From Marinicella sp. (GTDB lineage Bacteria > Pseudomonadota > Gammaproteobacteria > Xanthomonadales > Marinicellaceae): a DNA stretch of 64,000 bases. Of this stretch, positions 22,236-59,879 are shown piece by piece (position 1 is the first letter of the stretch; each line of letters opens with the position of its first letter). The stretch is from contig OZ246001.1 of NCBI GenBank assembly GCA_965230295.1, forward strand, positions 3,744,001 to 3,808,000. The letters are read 5' to 3'. The notes beneath the pieces are model-generated. The model had not been told where the DNA came from and did not search any database. It worked only from the letters and a program-made list of their open reading frames with translations. The position numbers were made by a program, and so were the translations under genes.

Positions 22236-22242
22236 AATTCGC

Positions 22243-22273: not shown

Positions 22274-22301
22274 CTCAGCTTATTAATTATTGAGAGAAAA
22301 A

Positions 22302-23066: not shown

Positions 23067-23245
23067 TTTTTTACAGCACCATCTTGTTGAATTTACCATT
23101 CATAATCAATCATTTAAAAAAATATGTGAATTTTCGGGGGAATGTGCACAAAACCCCTACATGGAAGTTATTTGAACAAATTCACTATTTTTATATCTAA
23201 GGAACAGTATTGTTGAGTTATCAGCTTTATTGTAAACTTTACATC

Positions 23246-23599: not shown

Positions 23600-23680
23600 C
23601 ACAGGATAATTGCGTCTGAAATTTGTGGGCTTTGCCCATTTCAGGCATCTTTGTATTTACAGCAAAAATGAGATTTTTTA

Positions 23681-29546: not shown

Positions 29547-29568
29547 GAAATAAATAAAAGATGTTTAT

Positions 29569-29598
29569 GGTCGTGAACACTTCATTGCGTTCACGACC
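29569..29598 (+). terminator. Hairpin after cusA
   Basis: GGTCGTGAAC / GTTCACGACC perfect inverted repeat. Confidence 0.6.
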
Positions 29599-29647
29599 GT
29601 AAGGTTAATTAGAAGCAAAAATCAAACCCAAAAGACATGTTGTACCA

Positions 29648-42273: not shown

Positions 42274-42337
42274 TGCAACAATTTTAAAATTTATTGCAAC
42301 CAGCTTAATATCGCCCCTAAAACATTATTCATATTAT
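42274..42337 (+). promoter_or_regulatory. TGCAAC-N15-TGCAAC box with -10-like TATTAT
   Basis: Half-sites at 42274 and 42295; TATTAT at 42332. Confidence 0.65.
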
Positions 42338-42421
42338 GTGTGTATGCACGATTTTTTCTGAATTTTCGTGAACTGAGAAAAATCAATCATTTGAATGGCT
42401 TAGATCTACTGATCAATATTA

Positions 42422-43825
42422 ATGAGGTATACCATGAATACAAAGGTTCTTAACAATAACAAAATTTTATTAACAACAGCAATATTAATGGAATTAACCA
42501 CTCGACCTACGACTGTCAACGCCGCCACTATCTTCGTCGACCAAGAAAATTGTCATTTAGCTTCAGCAATCGTTGCTGCAAATACTGATTCTGCTGTATT
42601 TGGTTGTACAGCTGGTTTTGGAGCAGATGAGATCGTTTTAAGCTCAAGAACCCAGATTGTTCTGAATGAGGCCCTGCCAATTATTAACAGTTCCATCACT
42701 ATACAAGGCAATGAATCAAGCATTGAAAGAAATAGTACAGATATATTCAGGGTGATAGATGTTCAGGCTGGTTCCTTAACTTTAAACGACGTTACTTTGA
42801 GTGGCGGTGCTTCTGAAAATTCAGGTTATAGGACGGATTATGGTGCAGGTATAAGGGTGTCATCTGGAAAACTGTATACAAACAATGCTATTGTTAAGAA
42901 CAACAGCGGAATTGGTGTTGCTGTATTGAACAATAGTATCGCAACCATCAACAACTCTGTGGTTGAAAATAATAACGGTTTGGCAACATATTTCAGCGGT
43001 GGAGGCGGGCTTCATATTGAAGGCAGCCAAGTAGATGTGCTCAACAGTGATATTTCAAATAATAACAACAATTCAACTGGGTTTGGTGGGGGTGGTGTCT
43101 ATATTTCAAATTACAATGCCCTATCAATTGTGAACATCAACAGCAGCAGTATTAATAACAACACTTCAATCCGCAGTGGTGGTGGAATAAGTGCCATTGC
43201 CAGTGGTGCAGGGGGGGCAGATGCTATTACTTTAAATATAAGAAACTCAACCATTAGTGGAAATACAACTGATGAAAATGGTGGAGGCATACACTGTAAC
43301 CTTATCAATTCATCAATCATCAGTAGTACAATCTCCGCAAACACAGCTACTGGATACAGGGGCGGTGGGATTTCATGCGGCATCAGTTTTTTACCAGCAG
43401 GATCTGTTGTTAACATTGAGCACAGCATTATATCTGGAAATATTGCGGAAATTGGTAGTGAGATTAACGATTTGGATTCGGTATTTTCAAATGGCTATAA
43501 CATCATAGGTCAGCTGGGTTACAATGGAATAGCAGGACCACTCACGCCTGTTGTATCAGATTTGGTGCCCACCGTTAGTATCGAAAATATAATCAAAAAC
43601 CTTGCTGATAACAGTTCTAACAATAACAAGGGTATGACTCATAATTTAGTGACTGCTAGCCCAGCCATTGACTTGATTAACAACAACATTGATTGCGAAA
43701 CAAGGGATCAAAACGGAGTAATCCGACCACTTGATGGAGATGGGTCCTCAACTAGCGAGTGCGATGCGGGTGCTGTTGAATACGAATTTCACTCTGATTT
43801 GATTTTCAGCGACGGCTTCGAATGA
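42422..43825 (+). CDS. Secreted right-handed beta-helix protein (CSLREA-like N-terminus, choice-of-anchor Q-like C-terminus)
   Basis: CHLASAIVAAN, GGGI/TISGN repeats, SPAID...DQNG..R......CDAGAVE; ends DLIFSDGFE. Confidence 0.85.
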   Translation: MRYTMNTKVLNNNKILLTTAILMELTTRPTTVNAATIFVDQENCHLASAIVAANTDSAVFGCTAGFGADEIVLSSRTQIVLNEALPIINSSITIQGNESSIERNSTDIFRVIDVQAGSLTLNDVTLSGGASENSGYRTDYGAGIRVSSGKLYTNNAIVKNNSGIGVAVLNNSIATINNSVVENNNGLATYFSGGGGLHIEGSQVDVLNSDISNNNNNSTGFGGGGVYISNYNALSIVNINSSSINNNTSIRSGGGISAIASGAGGADAITLNIRNSTISGNTTDENGGGIHCNLINSSIISSTISANTATGYRGGGISCGISFLPAGSVVNIEHSIISGNIAEIGSEINDLDSVFSNGYNIIGQLGYNGIAGPLTPVVSDLVPTVSIENIIKNLADNSSNNNKGMTHNLVTASPAIDLINNNIDCETRDQNGVIRPLDGDGSSTSECDAGAVEYEFHSDLIFSDGFE

Positions 43826-43842
43826 CTAACACGCCACCAATT

Positions 43843-43907
43843 TGTGCACTTATTGAAATTATATTTACTAACACTACCTTTAAATTATGTCATTAGATAA
43901 GTGCGCA
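43843..43907. repeat. Dispersed inverted-repeat element, copy 1
   Basis: TGTGCACTTATT...GATAAGTGCGCA; related copies at 48940-48999 and 51275-51341. Confidence 0.7.
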
Positions 43908-44666
43908 TTTTTTCCATTTTTACCTTTTTACAATAACACTAAAAGCGACCTATGCTTTTATATTGTAAAAACATATAAAACAATAGTTAGTTTAATCCTA
44001 ATTTCACCACTATTACTTTTAATCCAATAGAAAGTGATTTTACTGTGAATGATTTAATTGCTTTTAGAAATTTTGACTGACTTATAATTACCTATTTACT
44101 GAATTTAATCCTTATACCAATTTTTTACTTTTTATTCCTGTTAATAAACAACACTATGGGTACGTCTTCAATTTCATCAATTCAATAAGATATATTCAAT
44201 TTGCTTACTATTTATTTTTTCTTGTATCACAATTTACAGATACTTACATCATTCCAAAAATCATAATTATCCCTTTGTTTTAAAATAACCAAAGTTATTT
44301 AAACATCATCGAAGTCATTGAGTGTTTTGACTTTATCTTCATCAAATGTATGGAAAGATAATTGCAATTAACCTATAGAAAAACGAGAACATAGCGCGTT
44401 CTTTAACACGATATTTATCAGTGTGTAAAACCCAAAAAATTTACACTAATAAAACAATTTCACTTACAATGACTGTGTGTGCTTTAAAAAATATTTTATC
44501 CATCATAAATTACTCAGGTAATGAATGATTTGTCATTCTTGTAATAACATTCGTCTTATCTGTTTTTGTGTTGGCATCTAAGGTTATGGAATCAGTTCAT
44601 CCAATGAGATTGATGATGTATAATTCTGGTGAATTCAATATCTATTGACTACGGTAATTAAACATT

Positions 44667-47600
44667 TTGAAAAAAATTATTTTTATAATATTTTTATGTT
44701 GTAGTTTTACAACCAATGCCAATAAATATTTTGGGCAGCCCCTTGCGGAAATATATACACCAAGTGAAATTCAAGGACATTTCCAAAACTGGTGTCTGTA
44801 TCAAACTAATAATGATTTCATCTACGTGTGTAATGGTAACAGTATTCGAGTCTGGGATGGCGAGTCATGGAGTTTGTTGAGGCTGCCGAATAATTTAGGT
44901 CCAAGGCAACTAACAGAATGGAAAGGGCAGATATATTTGGGATTACCAAAAGATTTAGGTCTATTGAGCGAAAATGGTCAAGGGGTAAAGCAATTCAAAA
45001 GTTTGCTTACTGATGATGAAACACTAGAAATTGATCAAATTTGGTCAGTGGCTGCCACAGAAGATTATTTGTACTTTGTTGATACTAGTCAAATTTTTGT
45101 TTGGGATAATGAAAACTTAACACAATATGACATCCCCGACTTTAAAAGCAAAGTTTACAAATTTAAAAATAAGCTGTATTTAAAAACTTATGATGACATA
45201 TATGTCTACGAAATAACACCCACAGGCCTAAATAAAACTAATTGGCAATTACCGGAGAGGGGTTTGATTCGAGGAATGTTTCAAACAGCATATGGTGATT
45301 TTATGGTCACCAACAACTTTGGTATATATTCTATAGGTTCTGAACTAGAACTGATCAAAAACCCCTTTAACTCAGACGTATTCATTTTTAACAGCATCCT
45401 CACAAATGATGGGTATTTATATGTTGCATCTATCAACAAGGGCCTTTTCATACTTGATCATAAACTAGATATTCGATTGAATTTGACGCAGTCAGACAAA
45501 TTTGGCATGAGCCAAGTGGCTGATGTTATCCAAGATCGACAAGGGAATATATGGGCGGCTGGTTCTCCAAATATAGTGGTTATGCAACCACCACACATAA
45601 TGGGTAAAATCGTATTTGATGGTGATAATAACACTGTTTTGAATATTAAAAATATAGGCGATGAAACTATTGCGCTTGGTCGAGGGGCTTACAAATTGTC
45701 TGATGATAATGAGAGGCATCAGGCAAAATTTAAACATTGGTTGGAATTCAGAACTGTCAATGATGTTATTGAATATGATTATGATATCCTGGTATTTGCC
45801 CATAGCACAGGGATACAAGTTGTCAATTATGTCAATGGCCAGGCAAGAAAAAAGCAAAACCTATTAACAGGAACTCATGTTAATTCGTTATTCCGTCACC
45901 CAAGGACATCTTTTATTTATGCAGCTTCAGATGATGGCCTATTTGAAATAAAACAAGAACGAAATCAATGGATTGTTGAGTCTGTAGATGGTGTTTCCGA
46001 AGATGTTAGTCGGTTGATAATGGGAGACCAAGGCTATTTATGGGTGGGCGATGATTATGGAAATATATTTCAAGTTGAACCCAGCCAAATTGGAACTTCT
46101 AGTAAATTAATCAGGGTGTTTACTGAAAAGAATGGAATAGCCCAAAGCAACGTTGTACCTTTTGTCATAAATAATCAAACCTATATTGGAACATTTGATG
46201 GCGCCATGCAATGGGATGAATTCAATGATAATTTACAAATGGCAGAAGGCTTGCCAGAGATTTTTACAACCAAAGGGCAAGACATTCACCGAGTTTACCA
46301 AGATCATGATAATAACACTTTTTACCGTATCGGTAACCACAGTGGGTTAGCAAAATTTAATCAAGAAAAATGGAGTATAAATGAAAAATTGTTTTTACCA
46401 TTTAAAGCTAATTCAATTCAATCATTTTTGAAGGTCGAATCGACTTTATATTTTGTTGTTCCAGGTGTAGGTGTCTATTATTTAAACCAACCCGAGCATT
46501 CGATTTTACCTCCACAAGGTAAATTACATTTTAGAGCCGTTGAAGATAAACACAAGGGAGAATTACTATTTGATAATGCTGATAACTTAGATTCAATAAA
46601 TCGTAACTATAATGACACTGCACTCCGCTTGCTTTTTGCTTTTACTGATTACTCCTTACCTAACAAAACTTTATACAGAAGTAGGGTTGTTGGGTCAATT
46701 TCTCCTTCATGGTCGGTATGGAATACAGAAAATTTTCGTGAAGTTGATATAACGAAGGGAGGAACTTACGAACTAGAAATCCAAGCTAAGGACGGTTGGG
46801 AAAGACTCTCTGAAATCAAAAGCATTACGTTTACTATTGAACCACCTTGGTTTGCTTCATTTTGGGCTTATACCGCTTATGCCATTCTATTTATAATTAT
46901 TAATATCTTGATTGCGAATTATTATTCGAGATACCGAAATATGAAACTTGAAAAGGCTAAGTTACAACTACAAAAAACAGTCAAGGAAAAAACAAAAAAT
47001 GTTTATATTAAGGCCATGGAACTTGAACAAACACAAATGGCAAAAGATCGTTTCTTTGATGATTTCTCTCACGAATTAAGAACCCCACTGTCCTTGGTAA
47101 TGGCACCTTTAGAACAGTTGAGAGACAAAGATAAGAATGATGATCGGATGTTAGATTTGGCAATTCAAAATGCAGATAAATTGAGAAACCAAGTCAATCG
47201 ATTGTTTCAGATCCATGATGCAAATTTTAACAGCAACGACCTGTCTAAATCAGTGGTAGATTTAAGGGCCCGGGTACAAGAATTGGTAAAAGAATTTATG
47301 CCTTGGTCGATTAAATTGAAGCAACACATGGAGTTAGTTACTAACAAGCAAGAAATATCATGTTTTTGTGATGCCGATAAAATGGATGCTGTATTTAGGA
47401 ACCTGTTAAGCAATGCAATCAAGTACAGTGGTCAACAATCAAATATAAATGTGAATATGGCGCACGATTCGGAGAAGGTTGTTGTTTCAGTAATAGATGA
47501 TGGACCAGGAGTTGCCCAGCAAGATCAACAAAAGGTCTTTTCTCGGGACTTCAAAAGCGATGAGAATAATCAAAGTGATCAACCAGCTGTTGGCATTGGT

Positions 47601-48524
47601 TTGTCTATCGTTAAAGATGTAGTAGAAGCGCATAATGGTTCGATCACATTAAGTACCAATCAGCCTCACGGGGCACATTTTATGGTAATGATTCCAACCG
47701 GGATGAACGCAAATTGTGCAACTATTGAGAATGAGTCAAGAAATGAGGAAGACTCAACCGAACAATTGCAATTACCTAAAAACGACATAATGACCATTAT
47801 GTTGGTTGAAGACAATGACGAATTAAGGGAATTTCTTATTTATGTGTTTGCCACATCATACAAAGTAGTTGACTATGCGAATCCAGTAGAGGCACTGAAG
47901 GATATTGATGAAATACTGCCTGACGTTATTGTCAGTGATGTCATGATGCCAGAAATGAACGGTATTGAATTCACTGTAGCAGTTAGGGAAAAAACAGTAT
48001 TTAGCGCGATACCGATCATTTTATTGACAGCCAAATCAACTCAAAGTGATGTGGAAAAAGGTTTAACCCTAGGGGCGACCGATTACATGGTTAAGCCATT
48101 TAGCCCCAAAGAATTGTTATTGAGGGTAGATAATCACATTAATACGCTTAAGTCGATCGTATCGCATTATAAAATACCTCTTAAAAGTGCTAAAGCTGTC
48201 AGTAAGACATTGCAAAAAATCAATGAAATCATAAAGAACAACTTACATGATACAAATTTCAGCACTTCAGCATTAGCAGAAATGATGTTTATGGATCGAA
48301 CCACGTTATTCCGTAAAATAAAAAAGGAGGTAGGACTCTCTCCTGTAAAATATATTAAATCCTTTAAAATGGAAGTAGCTGCTCAACTATTGATGGAAAA
48401 AGACGTAAGTGTTAGTGAAGTGGCTTATTTAACTGGATTTGATAGTTTGGCTTATTTTTCTGCCAATTTTAAAGCGCATTACCAACAAACACCTTCAGAA
48501 TATATAGCAAAGTTAGACAGGTAG
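44667..48524 (+). CDS. Hybrid two-component system (beta-propeller + Y_Y_Y-like + TM + HisKA + HATPase + REC + AraC HTH)
   Basis: IQDRQGNIW, GTYELEIQAKD, IEPPW, FSHELRTPL, NLLSNAIKY, DDGPG, GIGL, VEDNDEL..VSDVMMP, VSEVAYLTGFDSLAYFS. Confidence 0.95.
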   Translation: MKKIIFIIFLCCSFTTNANKYFGQPLAEIYTPSEIQGHFQNWCLYQTNNDFIYVCNGNSIRVWDGESWSLLRLPNNLGPRQLTEWKGQIYLGLPKDLGLLSENGQGVKQFKSLLTDDETLEIDQIWSVAATEDYLYFVDTSQIFVWDNENLTQYDIPDFKSKVYKFKNKLYLKTYDDIYVYEITPTGLNKTNWQLPERGLIRGMFQTAYGDFMVTNNFGIYSIGSELELIKNPFNSDVFIFNSILTNDGYLYVASINKGLFILDHKLDIRLNLTQSDKFGMSQVADVIQDRQGNIWAAGSPNIVVMQPPHIMGKIVFDGDNNTVLNIKNIGDETIALGRGAYKLSDDNERHQAKFKHWLEFRTVNDVIEYDYDILVFAHSTGIQVVNYVNGQARKKQNLLTGTHVNSLFRHPRTSFIYAASDDGLFEIKQERNQWIVESVDGVSEDVSRLIMGDQGYLWVGDDYGNIFQVEPSQIGTSSKLIRVFTEKNGIAQSNVVPFVINNQTYIGTFDGAMQWDEFNDNLQMAEGLPEIFTTKGQDIHRVYQDHDNNTFYRIGNHSGLAKFNQEKWSINEKLFLPFKANSIQSFLKVESTLYFVVPGVGVYYLNQPEHSILPPQGKLHFRAVEDKHKGELLFDNADNLDSINRNYNDTALRLLFAFTDYSLPNKTLYRSRVVGSISPSWSVWNTENFREVDITKGGTYELEIQAKDGWERLSEIKSITFTIEPPWFASFWAYTAYAILFIIINILIANYYSRYRNMKLEKAKLQLQKTVKEKTKNVYIKAMELEQTQMAKDRFFDDFSHELRTPLSLVMAPLEQLRDKDKNDDRMLDLAIQNADKLRNQVNRLFQIHDANFNSNDLSKSVVDLRARVQELVKEFMPWSIKLKQHMELVTNKQEISCFCDADKMDAVFRNLLSNAIKYSGQQSNINVNMAHDSEKVVVSVIDDGPGVAQQDQQKVFSRDFKSDENNQSDQPAVGIGLSIVKDVVEAHNGSITLSTNQPHGAHFMVMIPTGMNANCATIENESRNEEDSTEQLQLPKNDIMTIMLVEDNDELREFLIYVFATSYKVVDYANPVEALKDIDEILPDVIVSDVMMPEMNGIEFTVAVREKTVFSAIPIILLTAKSTQSDVEKGLTLGATDYMVKPFSPKELLLRVDNHINTLKSIVSHYKIPLKSAKAVSKTLQKINEIIKNNLHDTNFSTSALAEMMFMDRTTLFRKIKKEVGLSPVKYIKSFKMEVAAQLLMEKDVSVSEVAYLTGFDSLAYFSANFKAHYQQTPSEYIAKLDR

Positions 48525-48530
48525 ACTGTA

Positions 48531-48594
48531 TGCAACAAAGCTTATATTCACTGCAACAAGCATAATAACCCCTCTAATACATTCTGCGTAGGAT
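48531..48594 (+). promoter_or_regulatory. TGCAAC-N15-TGCAAC box with -10-like TAGGAT
   Basis: Half-sites at 48531 and 48552; TAGGAT at 48589. Confidence 0.65.
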
Positions 48595-48694
48595 GTGACT
48601 CTACTGATTTATCGTTTTGAAAAAAATATAAATCTCTGAATTAACAGAATGAAAAACATTCAATTAACATGACATATCTGATGAGGAAAACGTA

Positions 48695-48920
48695 ATGAAA
48701 ATACTTAAAGTACCTCTTGCTGTGCATGGATGCATCGAGTTTGAATTTGATGAGTTTGAATTTAATTTATCAGGTTCTTCTGGTTGTTCCGCTATTAATG
48801 ATGGCAATGTTAAGGGCAAAAATCAGCGTAGAGGTAGAAGTATGTGGAATTTTGAAACTGGCAGCTATGTGATATTGAATGCATGGGAAAGAAAAACCCA
48901 ATTTTACTAGTGAAAATTAA
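48695..48920 (+). pseudogene. Internally deleted relic of an FG-GAP gene
   Basis: 48853-48920 (gaaactggcagctatgtgata...gggaaagaaaaaccc..ttttacta) aligns with the last ~65 nt of 49676-51256; upstream and downstream flanks are also homologous. Confidence 0.7.
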
Positions 48921-49273
48921 TCACTAAGCAACGAGTATGTGTGCACTTATCGAAAGCTTGTTTCCCCCCCCTTTTTTTTAGTTAGTAGATAAGGGCACAT
49001 TTTAAATTCATTTAGGAAAAATGTATCAGGTTTTGAGGCATGCTAGATGAAACACAAAAGAAGGTCAATTTATTATAAAGGTGAATTTATCGTTAATGAT
49101 TTAATAACTGCACATAATTTTGAGTGACTCTTTAAAGTGCCACTCCTCCTAATTGTGCTCCAACCTTAAATTCTGGCAAATACAACTCACCTCGTGTATA
49201 ACAGAATGGTTGGAGCGCAATCCTTACGTTATACGTGCGGCTGACCACTAATTCGATCGAGTAACAAATAGCA

Positions 49274-49530
49274 TACAAGATACACATTTCAGCACTCAAA
49301 GTGTTTGTTAGTCGAAATGATGTTTATGTATCGAATCACTTTACCCCGTAAAATAAAAAAGATAATAGGTGCTCTCCTGTAAAACATAATAAAACCATTA
49401 ATATGTAATCAACTGCTTAACTATTGCTAAAAAGTTAGTCTGCGTTGGCGTAGTGGCTTACTTTCTTTCGATTTTAAAGCGTTATTGCTAATAAATACCT
49501 TCATAAAGTATAGCAAATTCAATCTAATAG
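49274..49530 (+). pseudogene. Degenerate duplicate of the 3' end (AraC HTH) of the hybrid sensor gene
   Basis: gaaatgatgtttatgtatcgaatcactttaccccgtaaaataaaaaag...ctctcctgtaaaa aligns with 48279-48350. Confidence 0.85.
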
Positions 49531-49536
49531 GCTTTC

Positions 49537-49600
49537 TGCAACAAAGCTTATATTCATGCAACAAGCATAATAATTTCCTCTCAAGCATTCTGTATAAAAT
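49537..49600 (+). promoter_or_regulatory. TGCAAC direct-repeat box (20-bp period) with -10-like TAAAAT
   Basis: Half-sites at 49537 and 49557; near-identical to 48531-48570 with a 1-bp deletion. Confidence 0.6.
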
Positions 49601-49675
49601 TCGTATCAGTGGTTTATCGTTTTTCGGTTTACAAAAGTATAAATCATGATTTAAACAAAATGAGAGAGAAATATC

Positions 49676-51256
49676 ATGGATAAAATTACATTTGTGTATA
49701 TGATTTCAAGTTTGCTTTTTCTAGCTATAAACGGTTTACTCAGTCCGAGCCGGAATATTAATTTAGCTGACATCAATGGAAACAACGGCTTGGTGATTCA
49801 TGGGGAGCAAACTTCAGATTTTTCAGGTTATTCGGTCAGTAGTGCAGGTGATGTTAATGGAGACGGGATTGATGACATAATTATTGGTGCTTTTGAACCA
49901 GATCAGAACACAAAATACAATACTGGGCGCAGTTATGTGGTTTTTGGTAGTGATCAAGGGTTTTCTAATCCATTGGGTTTGGAAAACCTGAATGGATCTA
50001 ACGGTTTTGTTATAAATGGTGCTGAACACAATGATTCATCGGGCATGTCAGTTGCCTCAGCAGGTGACTTTAATAACGATGGGGTTGGAGATTTGCTTAT
50101 AGGAGCACCTGATGCATCAACAGGCATTGGATCAGTTTATATCATTTGGGGTAACAGGGAAGAACAATTCCCCAGCCCATTTGAATTGTCAGACATTAAT
50201 GGTGTTAACGGACTGGTTATCCATGGCGAAGAAGTTCAAGGGAAACTGGGTTTTTATGTCAGTTCAGCGAGTGATGTTAATGGTGACGGAATCAATGATA
50301 TGATTATTAGCTCACCAAAATCGGATGGCAATGGTACTGTCGATTCTGGTGCTATTTATGTGATATTTGGGAATGAATTGGGGCTTCCAAACCCATTTCG
50401 TGTCGGCTCCATTAATGGGGTGAATGGATTTAAGATCAATGGAGTTCCAACTACTGGTGCTCAGTCTGGTTTTTCTGTTAGCAAAGCAGGTGATATTAAT
50501 GCTGACGGTATTTCTGACCTTCTAATTGGTGTTCCATTTGATTCTAGTAACGGTAATTTGTTGTCAGGAAAAGTATACATTATTTTTGGAAAAAATAATG
50601 TATACCCAAATCTCTTTGAACTCTCAAGTATAAATGGATTGAATGGCATTCAGATTAATGGAGAAAATCAGGATGATCATTTAGGTTATTCTGTCAGTTT
50701 GGCTGGCGATGTCAATGGCGATAGTATAGACGACATCATTCTGGGAGCGCCATTTGCACAAGCTAATAATAGCGTGCAAGCTGGTGCCGCATATGTGATA
50801 TTTGGCAGCAATAAAAGACTACCAAACCCATTCAATATATCTACTATCAATGGTTTGAACGGATTCAAGATCACTGGAAATATCATTGGAGGCAAGCTTA
50901 GTCATTCAGTAAGTGGTGGAAGCGATATCAATGGCGATGGCTTAACCGACATAATAATAGGAGAACCTGATTCTAGGGCAGGAAGGAGTCATGTAATTTT
51001 TGGAAGCAACGAGGATTTCTCTAACCCATATAGCGTTGACTCTATCAATGATTCAACTGGATATACCATTAACGGTGTTAATGGTGGTGATTTACTGGGA
51101 TTCTCAGTCAGTGGTGCTGGAGATTTTAACGATGATGGTATTGGTGACATTATATTAGGTGCACATGGTGCTGATCCAAATGATATTTTTGAAGCTGGTA
51201 ACAGCTATGTGATATTTGGGAAAGAACAACCCGTTTTTGCTAATGGATTTGATTAA
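49676..51256 (+). CDS. Secreted FG-GAP/integrin-alpha-like beta-propeller protein
   Basis: About seven SVS.AGD.NGDG.DD.IIGA...G..YV.FG repeats; ends QPVFANGFD. Confidence 0.92.
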   Translation: MDKITFVYMISSLLFLAINGLLSPSRNINLADINGNNGLVIHGEQTSDFSGYSVSSAGDVNGDGIDDIIIGAFEPDQNTKYNTGRSYVVFGSDQGFSNPLGLENLNGSNGFVINGAEHNDSSGMSVASAGDFNNDGVGDLLIGAPDASTGIGSVYIIWGNREEQFPSPFELSDINGVNGLVIHGEEVQGKLGFYVSSASDVNGDGINDMIISSPKSDGNGTVDSGAIYVIFGNELGLPNPFRVGSINGVNGFKINGVPTTGAQSGFSVSKAGDINADGISDLLIGVPFDSSNGNLLSGKVYIIFGKNNVYPNLFELSSINGLNGIQINGENQDDHLGYSVSLAGDVNGDSIDDIILGAPFAQANNSVQAGAAYVIFGSNKRLPNPFNISTINGLNGFKITGNIIGGKLSHSVSGGSDINGDGLTDIIIGEPDSRAGRSHVIFGSNEDFSNPYSVDSINDSTGYTINGVNGGDLLGFSVSGAGDFNDDGIGDIILGAHGADPNDIFEAGNSYVIFGKEQPVFANGFD

Positions 51257-51649
51257 CCATTAAGCAAGCAAGTTTGTGCTCTTATCGAAAGCTTGGTTTT
51301 TCCCCTTTCCCTTTTTATCCTAGTTAATAGATAAGAGCACTTTTTAAATTCACTGGTGGAAAATAGATCAAGTTTCGATGACATAAAAGATGAAACACAA
51401 AATAACATTAAATCATCCATGTTCAGCCTTTTTAGAAGCTACATTAAAGATATACAAATAAGATTAAGTCTAAAAAAGCTATAACTGCGTTCCAATCAAA
51501 TTTCTTAATTACTGATCTTTTTAGAATTTTAGGAATGGATTTAATTACTATTCCACCTGTATCTTATTTGTAAATTTTTACAATCTTATGTGGCAATTTA
51601 TTCTTTTCAATAAAATAACGTGACAAAAAAATGCTCATATTGCGATGTT

Positions 51650-51714
51650 TGAAACAATTCTCATGACCATCGCAACATTTACAATATGTGACCATAAAAA
51701 TTTTTAGATATTCT
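51650..51714 (+). promoter_or_regulatory. Degenerate TGAAAC-N15-CGCAAC box with -10-like TATTCT
   Basis: Half-sites at 51650 and 51671; TATTCT at 51709. Confidence 0.5.
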
Positions 51715-51750
51715 TTCCTGCCTTATACCACACTAATCCAGAGGAGAAAA

Positions 51751-53940
51751 ATGAAGTTATCATTGCTATTAGTTTTATTAATCATCAAACAGCCTATTCA
51801 AGCTGGAGAAACTGAGCTCTCAAATCCAATTATGTTTGTTACGCAGTTTCCTATATCGAGTGACTTTGGCACAATTGGATCAACATTTGCAAATCACAGA
51901 GCTGACATAGCGGCTGTAGGTAGAGGCGGTGATTTGTACATCAGATACACTAATGGTGACTTAAGAAACTTAACCAGAGAGGCTGGTTTTGGCCAAGTGG
52001 GATTGCAAACGGGTAACGGGATTGCTGTTCGTGATCCAAGTATACATTGGAGCGGTGAAAAAGCATTGTTTAGTATGGTTGTCGGAGCTCCAGAAAGATT
52101 CGGTTCTAATGAATATTATTGGCAATTATATGAGATAACTGGTTTTGGAGTAGGAGAAACGGTTTCAATAACTAAGATACAAAACCAACCAACTGATTAC
52201 AACAATATCACTCCGATATATGGATCGGATGATGCAATCATTTTTACCTCAGATATGCCCAGGAGCAAAAACAGGCATAATTACCCACAATATGATGAAT
52301 ATGAATCAACACCCACTAATACAGGGTTATGGAGACTTAAAGAAGGTCGTGTCTCTTTGATACAACACTCACCATCTGGTTCTTTTAGTCCCTTAGTTGA
52401 TAGTTATGGTCGACTGGTATTTACACGTTGGGATCATTTGCAAAGAGATCAACAAGCTTCCCCAATAAATATAAATGGAGCCTTTAACTACAGCAGTGAA
52501 TCTCCAAACGCTCAATTACTGAATGAAATCACTGAAGTATTTCCGGAACCAAGACCAATTGAGTTCGATTTATTAAATGGAACCAATCTAGTTGGGCATA
52601 GAAGCAATCATTTCTTCCCTTGGCAAATCAATCAGGATGGCACTGAGGAAGAAACATTAAACCATGTGGGTCGTCATGAGCTTCATAGTTTTTTTGCTAG
52701 ATCTATAAACGATGATTCAAATGTAGTAGATTTCATAATTGGACAAAATCGCCCAAATCAAAACGCCATTCTTAACACCCTTCACTTGAATGAAGATCCC
52801 AACAATCCAGGGAGGTTCCTTGCTATTGATGCTCCAGAATTTCAGACACATTCAGGCGGACAATTGATTTCTTTTGATTTACCACTCGGTGCTGATCCTT
52901 CTTTAGTAACTGTCAGCTATATGAGCCATGAAAGTACTCGCTATGTGGTAGCAGATGGTACCACCGCTTCTCCAGAGCACGTTGGTTTTTTTCGCGAAGC
53001 AAGAACATTAACTGATGGTACTATCATAGCTTCACATACTTCTGAAACGAGGAAGGCCGGTAATGAAGGAACGTTAACTAATCCAGACCCCAGGTATGAT
53101 TTTACCATCAAAACTTTAACTCAAAACCAATCAGGAAATTGGGTGCCTGATTCCAGAATAACAAATTTAAACACAGTCAACATATCCTATTACAATCCTG
53201 ATGAGTTGGTGGATTATACTGGTCCTTTATGGGAGCTAATGCCTGTTGAAGTTGTGGCTCGAGAAGTACCTACTTACACCAGCGAAATTTTGCAGCCCCC
53301 CGAGCTTCAGGTTTTTGCTGAGGAAAATGTTGATGTCCAGTTATTTAAGGAATTTCTGAAAAACTATCGATTGGCACTTGCGGTGATGCGCGATGTAACT
53401 ACAAGGGATGAATTAGATTTACAACAGCCCTATAACCTCAAAGTGGCAAGCAGTGATCATCAAACTATTGCTAATAGTGGTCAATTATATGAAATTTCAC
53501 ACATGCAATTTTTCCAAGGAGATCAAATCAGGGGATATGGTGGAATAGATTCCCCCTTAAGTGGGCAGAGAGTTTTGGCTCAATTTCAACATGATTTAGC
53601 AGCCGATAAATATAATCTTCCATTCTCATCAAACCCACCTGGAAGTACTGAAATCTTTTCAGATGGTTCAGTTGCATTCTTAGTACCTGCTAACCGAGCG
53701 ATGAGCTGGCAAACTCTCGCTCCTGATGGTGAGGCTGTTGTGCGAGAACGTTACTGGGTAAACTTCCAACCAGGTGAAATTAGGGCGTGTGGTGGATGCC
53801 ATGGAGTCAATCAAGTTGATCAAGCAGGGCAGTTACCGTCCACTCAAAAACCAGAAGCTTTGCGAGCATTGTTAGCACATTGGAAAAACACATTCACAGA
53901 CTTAATTAAGAAGCATGACTTTGAGGTTGTTGAGCAATGA
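51751..53940 (+). CDS. Secreted beta-propeller protein with hydrazine-synthase-alpha-like domain and CxxCH heme motif
   Basis: GAGGAG then ATG 51751; DPSIHWSG..LFSM, GRLVFTRWDH, DGSVAFLVPANRAMSWQ...QPGEIRACGGCH; ends DLIKKHDFEVVEQ. Confidence 0.75.
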   Translation: MKLSLLLVLLIIKQPIQAGETELSNPIMFVTQFPISSDFGTIGSTFANHRADIAAVGRGGDLYIRYTNGDLRNLTREAGFGQVGLQTGNGIAVRDPSIHWSGEKALFSMVVGAPERFGSNEYYWQLYEITGFGVGETVSITKIQNQPTDYNNITPIYGSDDAIIFTSDMPRSKNRHNYPQYDEYESTPTNTGLWRLKEGRVSLIQHSPSGSFSPLVDSYGRLVFTRWDHLQRDQQASPININGAFNYSSESPNAQLLNEITEVFPEPRPIEFDLLNGTNLVGHRSNHFFPWQINQDGTEEETLNHVGRHELHSFFARSINDDSNVVDFIIGQNRPNQNAILNTLHLNEDPNNPGRFLAIDAPEFQTHSGGQLISFDLPLGADPSLVTVSYMSHESTRYVVADGTTASPEHVGFFREARTLTDGTIIASHTSETRKAGNEGTLTNPDPRYDFTIKTLTQNQSGNWVPDSRITNLNTVNISYYNPDELVDYTGPLWELMPVEVVAREVPTYTSEILQPPELQVFAEENVDVQLFKEFLKNYRLALAVMRDVTTRDELDLQQPYNLKVASSDHQTIANSGQLYEISHMQFFQGDQIRGYGGIDSPLSGQRVLAQFQHDLAADKYNLPFSSNPPGSTEIFSDGSVAFLVPANRAMSWQTLAPDGEAVVRERYWVNFQPGEIRACGGCHGVNQVDQAGQLPSTQKPEALRALLAHWKNTFTDLIKKHDFEVVEQ

Positions 53941-54016
53941 TGTGTTTGATGAAAAAAATACAAATTGGTTTTTAAATAAATAATAAATCAGATCTATTAA
54001 AACATGGAATGACTGG

Positions 54017-54451
54017 ATGAGAAGACGAATAATTACAAAAGAAATTTTAATTGATGCCAGACCTGAAAAGGTATTTGATGCCTTGACAACGCCTGAAAAA
54101 ATCATAATTTTTTTTCCAGTTAGCGAAGTGATCTCAAATTGGGAAGTTGGAGGAGTTGTTGAATTTAAAGGAGGTACAAATGATCAATCCTTTACAAACT
54201 ATGGTGTAATAACAGAGTTTACCAAGCCTCATCATTTTACCTATCAATACTGGATTAATAACTATGGAGAAGAAAAAACCCCTGAGAACCATATTTATAT
54301 CAGCTACTCTTTAACAAGAAAAGATAACCTAACTAAGCTACAAGTGGTTCAAAGGAACATAAGATCACAAGAGTTGTTTGAAACTATGGATAACGTTGTT
54401 TGGGGCAATATCCTTAATAGCCTTAAAAATTATGTAGAGTTAGATACGTAA
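54017..54451 (+). CDS. SRPBCC/AHSA1-family protein
   Basis: EILIDARPEKVFDALTTPE...WEVGG...W..IL.SLK.YVE. Confidence 0.85.
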   Translation: MRRRIITKEILIDARPEKVFDALTTPEKIIIFFPVSEVISNWEVGGVVEFKGGTNDQSFTNYGVITEFTKPHHFTYQYWINNYGEEKTPENHIYISYSLTRKDNLTKLQVVQRNIRSQELFETMDNVVWGNILNSLKNYVELDT

Positions 54452-54804
54452 TAACACTTCTTCAATAACTTTTACATCAATGTTGAAATCGGATAATAAA
54501 TTAAAATTTCAGGCTTCGAATGTATTTTGGTGTGATTGTCATACTATTCTGATTTGATTGTTAACAAAGAAAACCGAACTTAATAGATGATGAATTTTAA
54601 GTTATACATGTACCCAACTATTATGTTTGGCTTAAATACAGTGAAAATTTTGAAAATTAACCACTCTAACATATCAATATTTTAGACTTAATCTTACTAG
54701 AACAATTCGAATTAAAATATTTAGTAACTTGTCACAAGTTATCTTTCAGTTAATGATTTTATTGATTGTGATTACTATTAATGAAGAATTAGTACGAGGG
54801 AAAA

Positions 54805-57800
54805 ATGAAATTCATAATTACAATTGCACTACTTTTGGGATTGGTGGCTGCACCCGTTGATGCAGAAAAAAAAGAATCATCTAAATTGATGACAGATAAA
54901 CTGTTTTCTGGGATGAAACTAAGAAATATTGGTCCTGCTTATATGTCAGGACGAATTGCGGATATTGAAGTTGACCCAAACAATCCTTCGATTTGGTATG
55001 TGGCTGTTGGCTCAGGTGGGGTATGGAAAACCGCTAATGGCGGCATTACCTGGGATCCAATTTTTGATAGCCAACCCGTTTATTCGATCGGTGATGTCAC
55101 TCTTGATCCTAGTAACTCAAACATTGTTTGGGTAGGCACAGGCGAAAACAATGCTGGTCGTCACTTGAGTTTTGGTGATGGCATTTACCGTTCACTTGAT
55201 GGTGGTGCTACTTGGACCAACATGGGGCTAAAAAAATCTGAACATATTTCAGATATTATTATTCACCCCAAAGATTCCAATACGGTTTGGGTTGCTGTTC
55301 AAGGCCCTTTATGGACTAAAGGTGGTCAAAGAGGATTATATAAAACTACTGATGGTGGTATGAACTGGAAAAACATACTTGAATTTAATGAGTGGACAGG
55401 TGTTACATCATTAGTCATGGATTCTCGAAATCCAGATAAACTTTATGCGGCCAGTTGGCAAAGACAGAGAACATTGCCAACCTATGTAGGAACCGGCCCC
55501 GGTTCTGGTATTCATACCACAGATGATGGTGGTAAAACCTGGAGAAAATTAAGTGGAGGTTTACCTATTGAAGATATGGGTAAAATTGGCTTAGCCATTT
55601 CAGCCCAAAATCCTGATGTTGTTTATGCCGCGATTGAAGTAAACCAACGTAAAGGTGGTGTTTATCGCTCAACTAACCAAGGTGCCAGCTGGAACAAAAT
55701 GTCCGATGAAGTAGGAAGTGGAACCGGTCCTCACTATTACCAAGAAATCTATACTGACCCACATCGTGATGATCGAATTTACTTAATGAGTAATAACAGT
55801 AAATACAGTAATGACGGTGGTAAGACTTGGGCCAATTTAAGTAATCAGTATAAGCATGTTGATGATCATGCCATGGCTTTTCATCCAAAAGACCCTTATT
55901 TTATGCTAGTGGGCAGTGACGGTGGTGTGTATGAATCAAGAGACGACATGAAGAATTGGCGTTATATGCAGAATTTACCAATTACTCAGTTTTATAAAAT
56001 AGCAGTTGATGATTCTATGCCTTTTTACTATATTTATGGCGGTACTCAAGATAATGCATCCCAAGGAGGCCCTTCACGAACAACCAGAGCACATGGAATT
56101 AAGAATAGTGACTGGTTTTTGATTTTGAATTGGGACGGACACCAACCGGCTACAGAACCTGGTAACCCAGATATTGTTTATGGGCAAAGACAAGAAGGTA
56201 ATCTGGCTCGATACCATCGCAAAACCAACGAATACGTATCAATTCAACCACAAGCCAGACCAGGTGAGCCAGGCGAGCGTTACAATTGGGATGCTCCAAT
56301 TTTAGTTTCAGCTCATGATCCGAAGCGCCTTTACCATGCTTCCCAGAGAGTATGGCGTTCTGATGATAGAGGTAACAGTTGGCGCACCATTTCAGGCGAT
56401 TTAACCAAGAATGAAAACAGAATGCATATACCGGTAATGGATCGTACGTGGTCAGTAAATTCTGGGTTTGATCTTTACGCTATGTCTAATTACAACACCA
56501 TCACAAACATCGCTGAATCACCACTTGATGAAAATATTTTGTACGTCGGTACGGATGATGGCTTGATTCAAGTGACATCAGATGGTGGAGCAAATTGGCA
56601 GCGTCATCAACTGGCTAACATCAGAGGCGTCCCTGAAACTGCATATGTGAACGACATTCGAGCAGATTTATTTGACAAAGACACGGTTTATGCTGCTTTA
56701 GATAATCACAAGCATGGTGATTACAACCCTTATCTGATTAAAAGTACCAATCGTGGAAAGTCTTGGAAATCTATCGCATCGAATTTACCCAATAATCATT
56801 TCGTTTGGAGGATTGTCCAAGATCATGTGAATAAAAATCTATTTTTTGTGGGTACAGAATTTGGATTGTTCTTTACTGTTAATGCAGGTAAAGATTGGGT
56901 TAAATTAACAGGTGATGTACCAACTATTTCTTTCCGAGATGTAAAAATTCAACGCCGCGAGAATGACTTGGTTGCAGGCAGTTTTGGCCGTGGTATATTT
57001 ATTTTAGATGACTATTCACCCTTGCGGAGTATCAGTGAATCAACACTTAGACAAGATGCTTTGTTGTTTCCCTCAAGAGATGCCCTCTGGTACATACCAG
57101 ATGCCTTACATACAAATTCGCACGGGGATTTTGAATACCGAGCCAAGAATCCAGATTTTGGTGCCACATTCACTTATTATCTGCGCGATGGTGTTAAATC
57201 AATGAAAGCGCTTCGAGAGGAGAAAGAGCAAAAGAACATACAGAAGGGAGAGTACCCATTGTATCCGGCCTTGGATATGATTGAGGCTGAAGTCAGAGAA
57301 ACAAAACCAGAAGTTTATTTACTTATAAAAGACAGTGAAGACAACATTGTTCGCAAGGTTGCTGCAAAAACAGGAAAAGGGCTTCACCGAGTCACTTGGA
57401 ATTTGCGCAAACCGTCTACAAATGCATTAGGCACAGCGCCAAGCTTTTTTGGAAATGTAGGCTCTTTAGTAGCGCCAGGTGAGTACAGTGCATCGTTGCA
57501 CGCAAAAATCGGTGGTCAAACGAGTATGTTGACACCAGCTGTTCGTTTTAATGTAATAGCACTTCATCAAGAAAATGAGGATGGTGCCGTTTCACCTCAA
57601 AAACGTACTGAGCTTATGCATGATGTTGATAATTTAAGGCGACATGTTTCAACAGCAAACAGTCAAGTCAAATTTCTAGAAAGTCAATTGACTTTCATAC
57701 AAACTGCGATGGATCGCTCTGCTACAATTTCTGCTGAATTGGAAGATAAATACCAACAATTGAGAGCAGCTGTATTTGAAATAGATAAGGTTCTAAATGG

Positions 57801-58059
57801 TTACTCATTCAGTAGAGGCTTAAATGCCATAGGTGCTGCACCTGCCACACTTTCAGACCGTATGTTTATGATTGAATTTGCCAAAGCCAACACTTGGGGT
57901 CTGACAGATACTCAAAAACAACAAATTGTATATGTGAAAGATGCATTAGGTAAGTTGCAGCCAAAAATTAAAAGATTGATGCAAAAAGAGTTCCCAGCTT
58001 TTAAAGCTTCACTTCTGAAAGCAGGTGCCCCCGGGATTCCAGCAGGTGTAATTGAATAA
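54805..58059 (+). CDS. Secreted VPS10/BNR (Asp-box) repeat protein, glycosyl-hydrolase-like
   Basis: LRNIGPA.MSGRIAD, repeated S.DGG.TW Asp-boxes, YGGTQDN, GSFGRG. Confidence 0.9.
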   Translation: MKFIITIALLLGLVAAPVDAEKKESSKLMTDKLFSGMKLRNIGPAYMSGRIADIEVDPNNPSIWYVAVGSGGVWKTANGGITWDPIFDSQPVYSIGDVTLDPSNSNIVWVGTGENNAGRHLSFGDGIYRSLDGGATWTNMGLKKSEHISDIIIHPKDSNTVWVAVQGPLWTKGGQRGLYKTTDGGMNWKNILEFNEWTGVTSLVMDSRNPDKLYAASWQRQRTLPTYVGTGPGSGIHTTDDGGKTWRKLSGGLPIEDMGKIGLAISAQNPDVVYAAIEVNQRKGGVYRSTNQGASWNKMSDEVGSGTGPHYYQEIYTDPHRDDRIYLMSNNSKYSNDGGKTWANLSNQYKHVDDHAMAFHPKDPYFMLVGSDGGVYESRDDMKNWRYMQNLPITQFYKIAVDDSMPFYYIYGGTQDNASQGGPSRTTRAHGIKNSDWFLILNWDGHQPATEPGNPDIVYGQRQEGNLARYHRKTNEYVSIQPQARPGEPGERYNWDAPILVSAHDPKRLYHASQRVWRSDDRGNSWRTISGDLTKNENRMHIPVMDRTWSVNSGFDLYAMSNYNTITNIAESPLDENILYVGTDDGLIQVTSDGGANWQRHQLANIRGVPETAYVNDIRADLFDKDTVYAALDNHKHGDYNPYLIKSTNRGKSWKSIASNLPNNHFVWRIVQDHVNKNLFFVGTEFGLFFTVNAGKDWVKLTGDVPTISFRDVKIQRRENDLVAGSFGRGIFILDDYSPLRSISESTLRQDALLFPSRDALWYIPDALHTNSHGDFEYRAKNPDFGATFTYYLRDGVKSMKALREEKEQKNIQKGEYPLYPALDMIEAEVRETKPEVYLLIKDSEDNIVRKVAAKTGKGLHRVTWNLRKPSTNALGTAPSFFGNVGSLVAPGEYSASLHAKIGGQTSMLTPAVRFNVIALHQENEDGAVSPQKRTELMHDVDNLRRHVSTANSQVKFLESQLTFIQTAMDRSATISAELEDKYQQLRAAVFEIDKVLNGYSFSRGLNAIGAAPATLSDRMFMIEFAKANTWGLTDTQKQQIVYVKDALGKLQPKIKRLMQKEFPAFKASLLKAGAPGIPAGVIE

Positions 58060-58864
58060 TTAAAAGAGTGTTTTTTTACATCATTGAACACGACTTTCAG
58101 AGAGGGAGGAACTGTTTCCTCTAATTTTCAAGAAAATTAATCCTGTATCATCGAAGTTGTATATTTAACTGGTTTTGACAGATCGTCTTATTATACACGT
58201 AACATTTTATTTCATTAACAATAACATAAAGTATGGCCTAACCCTGATGTTAGTTTATGTGCAACAATTTCAATGCATTTGACAACAATGTTAATAATTA
58301 ATAATTATTTGCTGTACTAAAATTTAGACATGCCATAAGTGTTTAAGACAATATGGAATTAGTAAAGAAAACAACTTAAGGCATTTTGCAATCGCGCCCT
58401 GAGAAATGAAGGCAGCTTTCTATCACACACTCACTAACCTGCTGGATTATCAATGGGCGCCTTTCAACTTCATGGAAAGGTTTAAGAGTCAACTGATTTT
58501 GTGATGAAATATCGTTTATATCACCGCACTTGAGTATTTAATTATTCTTAAATTTTGAAGCACATAAATTTAATAGGGCAGGTGTAATATTGAATTGTTA
58601 GCTCTAAGAATAAAATAACTTCAAAAAAATTATTTCAACCTATCGTGCTGACCTATCAATTGCATGTCATTCAACATCGTTACAATCCATTTTGTAGACC
58701 ACCACGACTACTAGTTCAGCTAGTAAGTGGTGGGATACCACAGTGCATCAATTTTAATTGAAATTGCAATTTTATTAATAACGACATCACATGCTAGAAA
58801 ATAAAATAATTGAATTAGGGTTCGCTTCTTAAAGCTAACTCAATTTTTTTGAATTTTAATATGT

Positions 58865-59443
58865 GTGTTTAAAATTATGATAAAAACTATTAATCAATTG
58901 GTAATTTTGGCTGGTCCCAAGTGTGTAGGGAAATCCACTTTCATGAGCGATTTATTAGATAATGAACCACCATTTATACACAAGTGTTTGGGTACTGATG
59001 AAAATCAAAAGTGGCATTTATTGAAACCAGAATATCTTGATAAAAAAGAATGGCCTGCTGCATCAAATCTTATTTGGGATTATGACTTTAATCACCCAAT
59101 CATCAGAAATCTTAAAAGCTATAAAGATGATAGCATGGTGTGTTTAATTAGATCTGCGAAACTTATAAATTTTGTAACAATGTGGTGCCCCAAACATGAA
59201 ATGATTAATCGCTTAAATAATCAGATTTTAAAAATGGATGATGAGAGTTTAAAAAATAAACTAATATGGCTTAGATGGTTGTACCAAACTGATGGCTTGT
59301 TAAGCAAAGTTTATTCCAATTGGTTTAAATTTATTACAGAATTTGAGGCTAATAACTGGCTGTTATTAAATAGTCAAAATGAAATAGAGCTTTCTGCTCT
59401 TAATATTGATAAATATCACTCAAATGTTGCCCCTTACATTTAA
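58865..59443 (+). CDS. P-loop protein, kinase-like, function unknown
   Basis: LAGPKCVGKST Walker A. Confidence 0.65.
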   Translation: MFKIMIKTINQLVILAGPKCVGKSTFMSDLLDNEPPFIHKCLGTDENQKWHLLKPEYLDKKEWPAASNLIWDYDFNHPIIRNLKSYKDDSMVCLIRSAKLINFVTMWCPKHEMINRLNNQILKMDDESLKNKLIWLRWLYQTDGLLSKVYSNWFKFITEFEANNWLLLNSQNEIELSALNIDKYHSNVAPYI

Positions 59444-59494
59444 TTTTATATATGTATAAAAACTTAGCTGAAATTGAACCACACTAAAGTGTTC

Positions 59495-59558
59495 GCGCCC
59501 TTGAATGAGAAGTTTGTTTTCTCTCTCTCTTCAAACAGATATTTCATCTCAAGGGCGC
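59495..59558 (+). terminator. Long hairpin after the P-loop gene
   Basis: GCGCCCTTGA / TCAAGGGCGC followed by a T-run; degenerate relative at 58393-58460. Confidence 0.5.
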
Positions 59559-59814
59559 CTTTTTATATTACAGTTCATGTAAAATTGACTTAAACGCTGA
59601 ATGTTTTTTGTACAACTAAAAAAGATCAGATCCCACATACACTTTATTTCCTTCATAATTGCAACCACAAAACCGTTGGTACATTTAAAACCTTAATTAA
59701 TGTGTGCACCATCAATTCAACTTGAGTGTTTTGTTTAGCAGCTGTTCTCAGGTTGCAATTTATTATTAATGCGCCTCCATTTAAAACCTTTTCAATAAGT
59801 CGCTTAAATGGCCT

Positions 59815-59879
59815 TGCAACAAAACTGATAGAAGTTGCAACGAACCTGATCGTTATTTTTTCATGTGCAAGTGTAAACT
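59815..59879 (+). promoter_or_regulatory. TGCAAC-N15-TGCAAC box with -10-like TAAACT
   Basis: Half-sites at 59815 and 59836; TAAACT at 59874. Confidence 0.65.

Follow-up and report, generated by a model that had tools for sequence, protein, structure and literature searches.

Tandem direct-repeat boxes around a proteobacterial hybrid sensor gene are probable operators of its AraC-type output domain

Regulators built as hybrid two-component systems (HTCSs) have been studied almost only in Bacteroides, as glycan-utilisation switches. In the part of one study drawn on here, the HTCS family is termed unique to Bacteroidetes, and the predicted operators of 16 Bacteroides HTCSs are without exception direct repeats, with a mean distance of 21 bp; for some, 16-bp sites and a 5-bp spacer are described (PMC3878776). 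For the HTCS BT4124, a 2026 study reports footprints over tandem half-sites ~22 bp apart, and in the portion cited it ascribes the two-domain requirement to the dimeric kinase (PMC13292587). A comparable arrangement is reported for XylS, whose target consists of two 15-bp direct repeats, each made up of TGCA, 6 bp and GGTA (PMC5481539). Here, we characterize a family of tandem, TGCAAC-type direct repeats (boxes) that recur around the gene of a hybrid two-component sensor-regulator (positions 44667–48524; hereafter, the sensor) and that are probably its operators. The DNA under study is the 64,000-nucleotide stretch covering positions 3744001–3808000 of a genome that consists of a single contig of 4,008,074 bp. 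This entire stretch is referred to as the window, and window-style coordinates continue its numbering past the window end.

A preliminary description of this DNA listed six half-site pairs on the + strand of the window, and all six are indeed there. Four are exact repeats of TGCAAC (42274/42295, 48531/48552, 59815/59836 and, with a period of 20 bp, 49537/49557), while two are degenerate: 51650/51671 (TGAAAC/CGCAAC) and 58260/58281 (TGCAAC/GACAAC). The pairs are also intergenic, as described; a GTG-initiated open reading frame (ORF) from position 51688 does overlap box 51650, but the likely start of this gene is the ATG at 51751, which follows GAGGAG. The list was, on the other hand, incomplete: boxes 39066 and 58744 had been missed in the window, and 11 more lie beyond it. 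The total is 19 boxes (49537 included), eight of them in the window and 11 past its end, over a span of 66 kb. The predicted regulon is about three times larger than first listed, and extends ~42 kb past the window. The sensor and the boxes are as follows (offsets are counted from the start of the second half-site).

44667..48524, + strand: hybrid two-component sensor-regulator, 1285 aa, with HisKA, HATPase_c, REC and HTH_18 domains (Pfam, residues 792–1280).
39066..39107, + strand: box, half-sites TGCTACAAAATTTATT.. / TTCAACAAATTTAATA..; position weight matrix (PWM) score 27.0 bits (untrained); TAnnnT at 39124, offset 37.
42274..42315, + strand: box, exact TGCAAC pair; -10-like TATTAT at 42332.
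48531..48572, + strand: box, exact pair, starting 7 bp past the TAG stop of the sensor; TAGGAT at 48589.
49537..49577, + strand: box, exact pair whose period is 20 bp, 1 bp being deleted in comparison with 48531; TAAAAT at 49595.
51650..51691, + strand: degenerate box, TGAAAC / CGCAAC, a training site; TATTCT at 51709.
58260..58301, + strand: degenerate box, TGCAAC / GACAAC; TAAAAT at 58318.
58744..58785, + strand: box, TGCATC / TGCAAT; PWM score 26.8 bits (untrained); TAAAAT at 58802.
59815..59856, + strand: box, exact pair; TAAACT at 59874.
67137, 70991, 76709, 78533, 82146 (- strand), 82318, 86425, 89928, 91836, 95519 (- strand) and 105622: boxes past the window end (window-style coordinates).

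The boxes stand out from the rest of the genome by the spacing of their half-sites rather than by the hexamer itself. TGCAAC alone is not enriched, with 36 occurrences in the window versus 47 ± 7 in shuffled sequence. The pair with a gap of 15 bp and up to two mismatches occurs 18 times in the window versus 8.0 ± 2.9 times in shuffles, and 0 of 100 shuffles reach 18. Across the whole genome, scanned on both strands, there are five exact TGCAAC-N15-TGCAAC pairs, all of which lie on the + strand and within 48 kb of one another (3786274–3833928). The exact pair occurs once at a gap of 14 bp (box 49537), once, in an unrelated place, at a gap of 13 bp, and nowhere in the genome at gaps of 16 or 17 bp. 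Allowing up to one mismatch, a gap of 15 bp gives 51 pairs genome-wide versus 12–24 at neighbouring gaps. Twelve of the 51 are intergenic according to a crude ORF map, and 11 of the 12 fall within 3786274–3839493 (two of these 11 being reverse-strand echoes of + sites).

The same restriction emerges from a 42-bp matrix trained on five of the six first-noted sites, with 49537 omitted because of its 20-bp period. For these counts, the island was defined as positions 3783000–3850000, or 1.7% of the genome. In a scan of the whole genome, all eight non-training matches above 25 bits, and 11 of the 13 above 20 bits, lie in the island; the matches outside it are at 879047 (23.0 bits) and 13854 (21.0 bits), and a reversed-sequence control reaches a maximum of 16 bits. 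After iteration of the matrix, the island holds 18 of the 19 top-scoring sites in the genome.

Alignment of the 19 boxes reveals a 16-bp half-site, TGCAACAAnnTTnATA, that is directly repeated at a period of 21 bp in 18 boxes and 20 bp in one. Conserved positions are the same in both halves—1–8 (TGCAACAA) and 11–16 (TTnATA)—and a further conserved, TAAAAT-like block lies downstream, while information content is close to zero in the 5-bp spacers and in the 30 bp upstream. The two conserved blocks of each half-site, TGCA(AC) and, ~6 bp on, TTnATA, are separated by roughly one helical turn and fit a single AraC-type domain with two helix-turn-helix units, by which they would be contacted.

The geometry downstream of the boxes is equally regular. 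A TAnnnT hexamer begins 37 bp (11 boxes) or 38 bp (seven boxes) after the start of the second half-site in 18 of the 19 boxes; at each of the other offsets between 19 and 50, TAnnnT is seen no more than once. The preliminary description had placed six such hexamers correctly, and had cautioned that TAnnnT is common in AT-rich DNA. Given the confinement of the hexamer to offsets 37 and 38, this caveat does not apply. Every box has the orientation of the next ORF (19 of 19; 17 on the + strand and two on the - strand). A sigma-70 consensus scan that requires a -35 match lists none of the box promoters, as is expected if an activator replaces the -35 element. If the TAnnnT hexamer is taken as the -10 element, the proximal half-site would occupy approximately -50 to -34, and the distal half-site approximately -71 to -55. 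As read from their sequence, the boxes thus have the layout of AraC/XylS activator sites at a class-II-like promoter: a direct repeat of ~21 bp, bipartite half-sites, and a fixed distance to the predicted -10 element.

The sensor is a candidate for the protein that would bind such sites. Its N-terminus carries a signal or anchor, followed by a periplasmic part of ~760 residues that is bounded by two hydrophobic, putatively transmembrane segments. This part contains one Reg_prop repeat that scores barely over the cut-off (21.7 bits versus 20.4; E 1.9e-4), so that it may be a sensor of the Reg_prop/COG3292 type. The Atlas clusters nearest to the sensor are generic HTCSs that carry PF07494, and among solved structures, its receiver and DNA-binding part has its best relative in a "hybrid two-component system protein" (E 7e-21). 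By its predicted domains, the protein has HTCS architecture: a large periplasmic domain is followed, on the same polypeptide, by HisKA, HATPase_c, receiver and HTH_18. Its receiver departs from those of most described HTCSs in one respect. The S/CHIP latch, in the alpha3-beta4 loop of the receiver, keeps the DNA-binding domains of most Bacteroides HTCSs inactive; it is reported to be 84–98% conserved in HTCSs, with its His present in 91% (PMC11253607, in the part concerned with this motif), and is thus common in the family without defining it. In alignment, the corresponding loop of the sensor (window 47900–48000) reads SAIP; the His is replaced by Ala, and the loop does not conform to the motif. 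The aligned homologues carry TTPV, ATPI and NAIP, the first two belonging to two same-genus, box-associated sensors.

The host is a proteobacterium. LolB is present in the genome (E 7e-32; of the controls, only E. coli gave a match), and SusD_RagB has no match in the genome (the control matched in B. thetaiotaomicron). LolB is not known outside the beta- and gamma-proteobacteria; its presence, together with the lack of SusD, identifies the host as a beta/gamma-proteobacterium, and not a member of the Bacteroidota. The Bacteroidetes precedent cited in the preliminary description therefore holds for direct repeats ~21 bp apart, but as an analogue from another phylum. A limited literature search for a proteobacterial HTCS regulon surfaced, among the papers listed, only Bacteroides or gut papers, which is not proof of absence.

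Boxes and sensor are physically associated in the island, not only through the box that abuts the sensor stop codon, but also through two remnants of the sensor gene.

49274..49517, + strand: sensor 3'-end relic, corresponding to sensor nt 3578–3845 and aa 1193–1282; 75–81% identity; blastn E 6e-28 and 1e-4, also seen by tblastn.
58153..58192, + strand: weaker sensor 3'-end relic, corresponding to nt 3751–3790 and aa 1251–1264; 80% identity; blastn E 0.002.

The first relic carries stop codons and a deletion, and ends 20 bp before box 49537; it bears out the earlier remark that two of the listed copies stem from one duplication. The second, of 40 nt, lies ~70 bp 5' of box 58260. Both relics adjoin boxes, which shows that duplication copied the stretch in which the sensor 3' end meets the operator. 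The island contains these relics only, and no intact sensor paralogue. Hence, where the boxes had earlier been attributed to the sensor or a paralogue of it, the first half of that attribution has gained support (the sole HTH_18 gene of the island, the box 7 bp past its stop, the relics, and the homologous loci described below), and an intact paralogue has not been found. Three other genes of HTCS size in the genome have no 21-bp-period repeat within 420 bp past their stop codons.

The association also recurs in other genomes. There is no close orthologue of the sensor in 40 relatives, where the best full-length match has 33% identity. A search with the last 121 residues of the sensor against 400 genomes of the same order returned 29 loci besides its own. 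Twenty-eight of these (L103–L130) were scored with 1.5-kb flanks; the remaining one, L013 in genome G033, had given at most 8 bits in an earlier scan and was omitted. A box (9.9–28.2 bits) lies within 300 bp past the sensor end, on the same strand, at six of the 28 loci, versus two of 462 control windows of the same size. The six genomes concerned are G302 (28.2 bits), G015 (22.9), G019 (19.3), G316 (17.9), G286 (13.8) and G303 (9.9). Their boxes start 8–191 bp after the end of the sensor match, and in G019 one base past the stop codon. All six are followed, at an offset of 37, by a -10-like hexamer (TATAGT twice, TAACAT, TATTGT, TACAAT and CACAAT), which has the TAnnnT form in every case except the last. 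In G015 and G019, the genes behind the boxes encode 1700-aa HYR-domain proteins that are unrelated to the island genes. A scan of 41 relatives for the exact pattern gave mostly matches in coding sequences, only those in G015 and G019 adjoining a sensor homologue. A separate locus search with a five-sensor alignment was discarded: it returned 80 generic HTCS loci of 24–34% identity, mostly from Bacteroidota, missed the genome of the window itself, and was useless for orthologue tests.

Taken together, we consider it probable that the boxes are operators of activator-dependent, sigma-70-type promoters, which the sensor binds and activates. The proposed mechanism involves (i) the perception of a periplasmic signal by the putative Reg_prop-type domain, (ii) transfer of phosphate from the kinase to the receiver domain of the same protein, and (iii) occupation of the two half-sites by the two DNA-binding domains of a sensor dimer. 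The bound proximal half-site would then take the place of the -35 element, and the sensor would recruit RNA polymerase to ~17–19 promoters over 66 kb around its own gene. Nearly every product of the resulting regulon would carry a signal peptide; the set would comprise about a dozen FG-GAP propeller paralogues, together with PARCEL/DUF285, LRR, choice-of-anchor-Q and BNR proteins.

Several observations weigh against this reading. Among the homologues, 22 of the 28 loci have no box within 300 bp downstream, and some of these have DNA-binding domains no less similar than those of the positives (47% in G185, 44% in G054); box-positive and box-negative homologues are not told apart by the first recognition helix. 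Only three genera (g1, g17 and g86), in two families, account for the six positives, which therefore do not represent six independent events. Within the island, boxes 86425, 82146 (- strand) and 76709 are weak (18.9–20.6 bits), and 86425 is the box that lacks TAnnnT. Some boxes are evident duplicates of one another (48531/49537/78533, 59815/67137/70991, 42274/89928 and 95519/105622), which brings the number of independent origins nearer to 13 than to 19. No intact gene stands behind box 48531, which is followed before the next box only by a 71-aa ORF and the sensor relic, or behind box 58260, where no ORF of at least 60 aa precedes the next box. Finally, there is no box in the 840 bp immediately 5' of the sensor gene.

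A different regulator, drawn from the 17 other AraC-family proteins or the 12 LytTR response regulators of the genome, might be served by the boxes; we regard this as unlikely. The supply of candidates is real, at 18 HTH_18 and 12 LytTR genes in total, and the island sensor does not stand apart from its box-less homologues by its recognition helix. However, no HTH_18 gene besides the sensor lies in the island, and LytTR genes are absent from it as well: the nearest is at genome position 3678274, over 100 kb away from the first box. Further, a box of the same geometry trails the sensor stop both here and in six other genomes, relics of the sensor lie at two further boxes, and the bipartite half-site resembles the TGCA-N6-box-B layout reported for XylS (PMC5481539).

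Somewhat less likely again is that the bound sensor acts as a repressor or as no more than a modulator of transcription, or that it occupies the boxes without phosphorylation. This idea draws on the lack of the S/CHIP His in the receiver: the sensor has SAIP, and the pair of same-genus, box-associated homologues in the alignment has TTPV and ATPI. In the part of the literature on this motif that we draw on, S/CHIP deviations are linked to weaker auto-inhibition, a lost inhibitory contact, and possible phosphorylation-independent DNA binding (PMC11253607); a similarly weakened auto-inhibition may apply to the SAIP receiver of the island sensor. Against repression, a site at approximately -71 to -34, combined with the lack of a -35 match, is activator-like, whereas a repressor would be more likely to overlap the -10 element or the start. 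Least likely is that the recurrence is a by-product of duplication along with the FG-GAP paralogues and the sensor 3' end, the copies being young and without a shared regulator today: the boxes do fall into clear duplicate families, and the island is rich in paralogues, fragments and relics, with transposase and integrase genes at its flanks, but conservation is confined to the half-sites and the -10 element, as selection rather than recent copying would leave it, the boxes stand before unrelated families (DUF285, choice-of-anchor-Q, HZS_alpha, LRR, lipoprotein and FG-GAP), and the same box and spacing occur in other genera before different genes, such as those for the 1700-aa HYR-domain proteins.

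Beyond activation of the boxes by the sensor, a broader picture can be offered tentatively, with rather more doubt than confidence: a membrane-tethered proteobacterial sensor with a private, local regulon that has grown by cassette copying, and that switches secreted or surface proteins. All of the ~19 operators lie no more than 66 kb from the sensor gene, and a membrane-fixed regulator would perhaps act best on DNA near its site of synthesis. The portable cassette would be the sensor 3' end plus the operator abutting its stop, of which two decayed copies would have been left in the island. The signal-induced output would be integrin-like propeller paralogues, LRR proteins and PARCEL proteins with a ..[LIV]IFxDGF[DE] C-terminal tag.

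The genes behind the boxes of the window are listed below.

39482–41752, behind box 39066: DUF285/PARCEL lipoprotein (Pfam/NCBIfam), with a predicted leader of ~350 nt.
42422–43825, behind box 42274: secreted choice-of-anchor-Q protein with the C-terminus ..DLIFSDGFE.
49676–51256, behind box 49537: FG-GAP protein.
51751–53940, behind box 51650: HZS_alpha-domain protein.
58865–59443, behind box 58744: 192-aa protein with a Walker-A-like GPKCVGKS and no family match.
59983–61635, 61764–63398 and 63452 to past the window end, behind box 59815: run of FG-GAP paralogues.

Across the island, the box-preceded genes encode DUF285/PARCEL, choice-of-anchor-Q, FG-GAP, HZS_alpha and LRR proteins, a lipoprotein-like ORF, and the 192-aa Walker-A-like ORF; most of the proteins have signal peptides. 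The FG-GAP paralogues number about a dozen, are ~530 aa long, and have integrin alpha propellers as their best solved relatives (E ~5e-12). Transcription from box 42274 could possibly read through into the sensor gene. Two genes without boxes, an AHSA1 gene (54017–54451) and a BNR/sortilin gene (54805–58059), may belong to the same transcription unit as 51751–53940, and a CotH gene in the island also has no box of its own. The flanks of the island, on both sides, contain integrase-like, Tn3-transposase and AAA_22-containing genes, and the G+C content of the window is 38.1%, versus 44.0% for the genome.

Three boxes are followed by long putative leaders. The start codons behind boxes 39066, 67137 and 70991 lie 410–422 bp on (at 39482, 67559 and 71401), which would give the transcripts leaders of ~350–370 nt. 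No Rfam family reaches its gathering score in the window or the 40 kb downstream of it, long leaders included. Another feature is found between box 89928 and the ATG of an LRR gene: a perfect tandem repeat of 15 bp × 6.0 (CAATAGGTTAGATTA; 100% matches; L002:6108–6197, window-style 90108–90197), which, if read from an upstream TTG, would encode NRLDY six times.

The FG-GAP paralogue array is turning over. At 65117–65632, 75400–77100 and 82667–84254 (window-style coordinates), it includes FG-GAP fragments and a split FG-GAP gene; a broken second AHSA1 copy lies at ~75085–75495. Fragments of FG-GAP and other genes are numerous in the island.

Nearly all box-preceded genes end in a common C-terminal tag, typically ..D[LIV]IFxDGF[DE]. 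In the window, examples are 42422–43825, 49676–51256, 59983–61635 and 61764–63398; members of the FG-GAP array carry C[INM] after the tag. Genome-wide, 95 of 3833 crude ORFs fit a regular expression for it (..[ILVMFY][FY]x x[GSANT][FL][DEQG]) in their final 14 residues, and the same tag ends the giant proteins adjacent to the sensor homologues of G015, G019 and G039. The tag looks like a sorting or secretion signal; it is covered by no family model, and a single literature search returned no matching described sorting signal.

Mobile and putative defence genes lie next to the island. A three-gene module occurs twice, ~100 kb apart and both times on the - strand, at window positions 116–3581 and at L002:15203–18722. 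It is made up of an AAA_22 ATPase (315/331 aa) and two proteins, of 622/634 aa and of 220/221 aa, neither of which has a Pfam match; the module may be a transposon. The second copy sits beside an integrase-like gene and splits the box island between 95519 and 105622. Window positions 10488–30394 hold a Tn3-family transposase (10488–13562, - strand), after which come a cation-efflux gene and two operons for RND efflux that include outer-membrane and HlyD/CusB-type partners; CusF and heavy-metal-binding domains are encoded in one of the two operons. This appears to be a metal-resistance mobile region adjoining the island. Just 5' of the first box, at 36318–38242, are GmrSD_N and HEPN RiboL-PSP genes that overlap by 4 bp and are probably a defence pair. 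They are preceded by integrase genes at 32396–33637 and 35246–36196.

The boxes and the sensor together describe a computationally well-supported, putative HTCS regulon in a proteobacterium, with unusually many operators and non-glycan targets. Operator sequence, geometry and predicted transcription starts are defined with enough precision for direct testing, and the list of presumably co-regulated secreted proteins could help to explain the FG-GAP arrays and the shared C-terminal tag.

The closest described systems each share some of these features. Like the HTCSs of Bacteroides, the island regulator is a single polypeptide with a periplasmic sensor (which may be of the Reg_prop type), a kinase, a receiver and an AraC-type domain. 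In the passages cited, Bacteroides HTCS operators are likewise tandem direct repeats, ~21–22 bp from each other and in some instances composed of 16-bp sites and a 5-bp spacer (PMC3878776, PMC13292587). In both cases, the regulator gene adjoins its targets, which for the island are predicted ones. The differences are that (i) the island regulon contains no SusC/SusD or glycan-degrading locus, and comprises instead ~17–19 promoters of secreted repeat proteins, (ii) the island host is a beta/gamma-proteobacterium, (iii) the island receiver lacks the S/CHIP His, and (iv) the island promoters carry a predicted -10 element of TAnAAT type. The -7 element of the Bacteroidota is TAnnTTTG, from which the island -10 differs.

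Three other types of regulator use comparable sites. Like the predicted operators of the island, the target of AraC at araI1-araI2 (araBAD) consists of half-sites in direct repeat with a period of 21 bp, of which the proximal half-site overlaps -35; AraC, in addition, forms a loop to a distant half-site and depends on CRP. LytTR regulators such as AgrA and ComE use short sequences, directly repeated every ~21 bp, upstream of the promoters that they activate, but their consensus differs, the island has no LytTR gene, and it is an AraC-type sensor that co-occurs with the boxes in seven genomes. XylS acts as an activator at Pm, where its proximal repeat reaches -35. Its site resembles the boxes in having two direct repeats of ~15–16 bp, in each of which a TGCA box at the 5' side is followed after 6 bp by a second box (PMC5481539, in the part describing the target). 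The second box is GGnTA for XylS and TTnATA in the island; moreover, XylS is soluble and effector-binding, with one target promoter on a plasmid, whereas the island DNA-binding domain is the output of a membrane kinase with many putative targets. Tandem AraC-type half-sites that overlap -35 are thus a known mechanism; what differs here is the phylum, the non-glycan regulon, the number of predicted operators, and the SAIP receiver.

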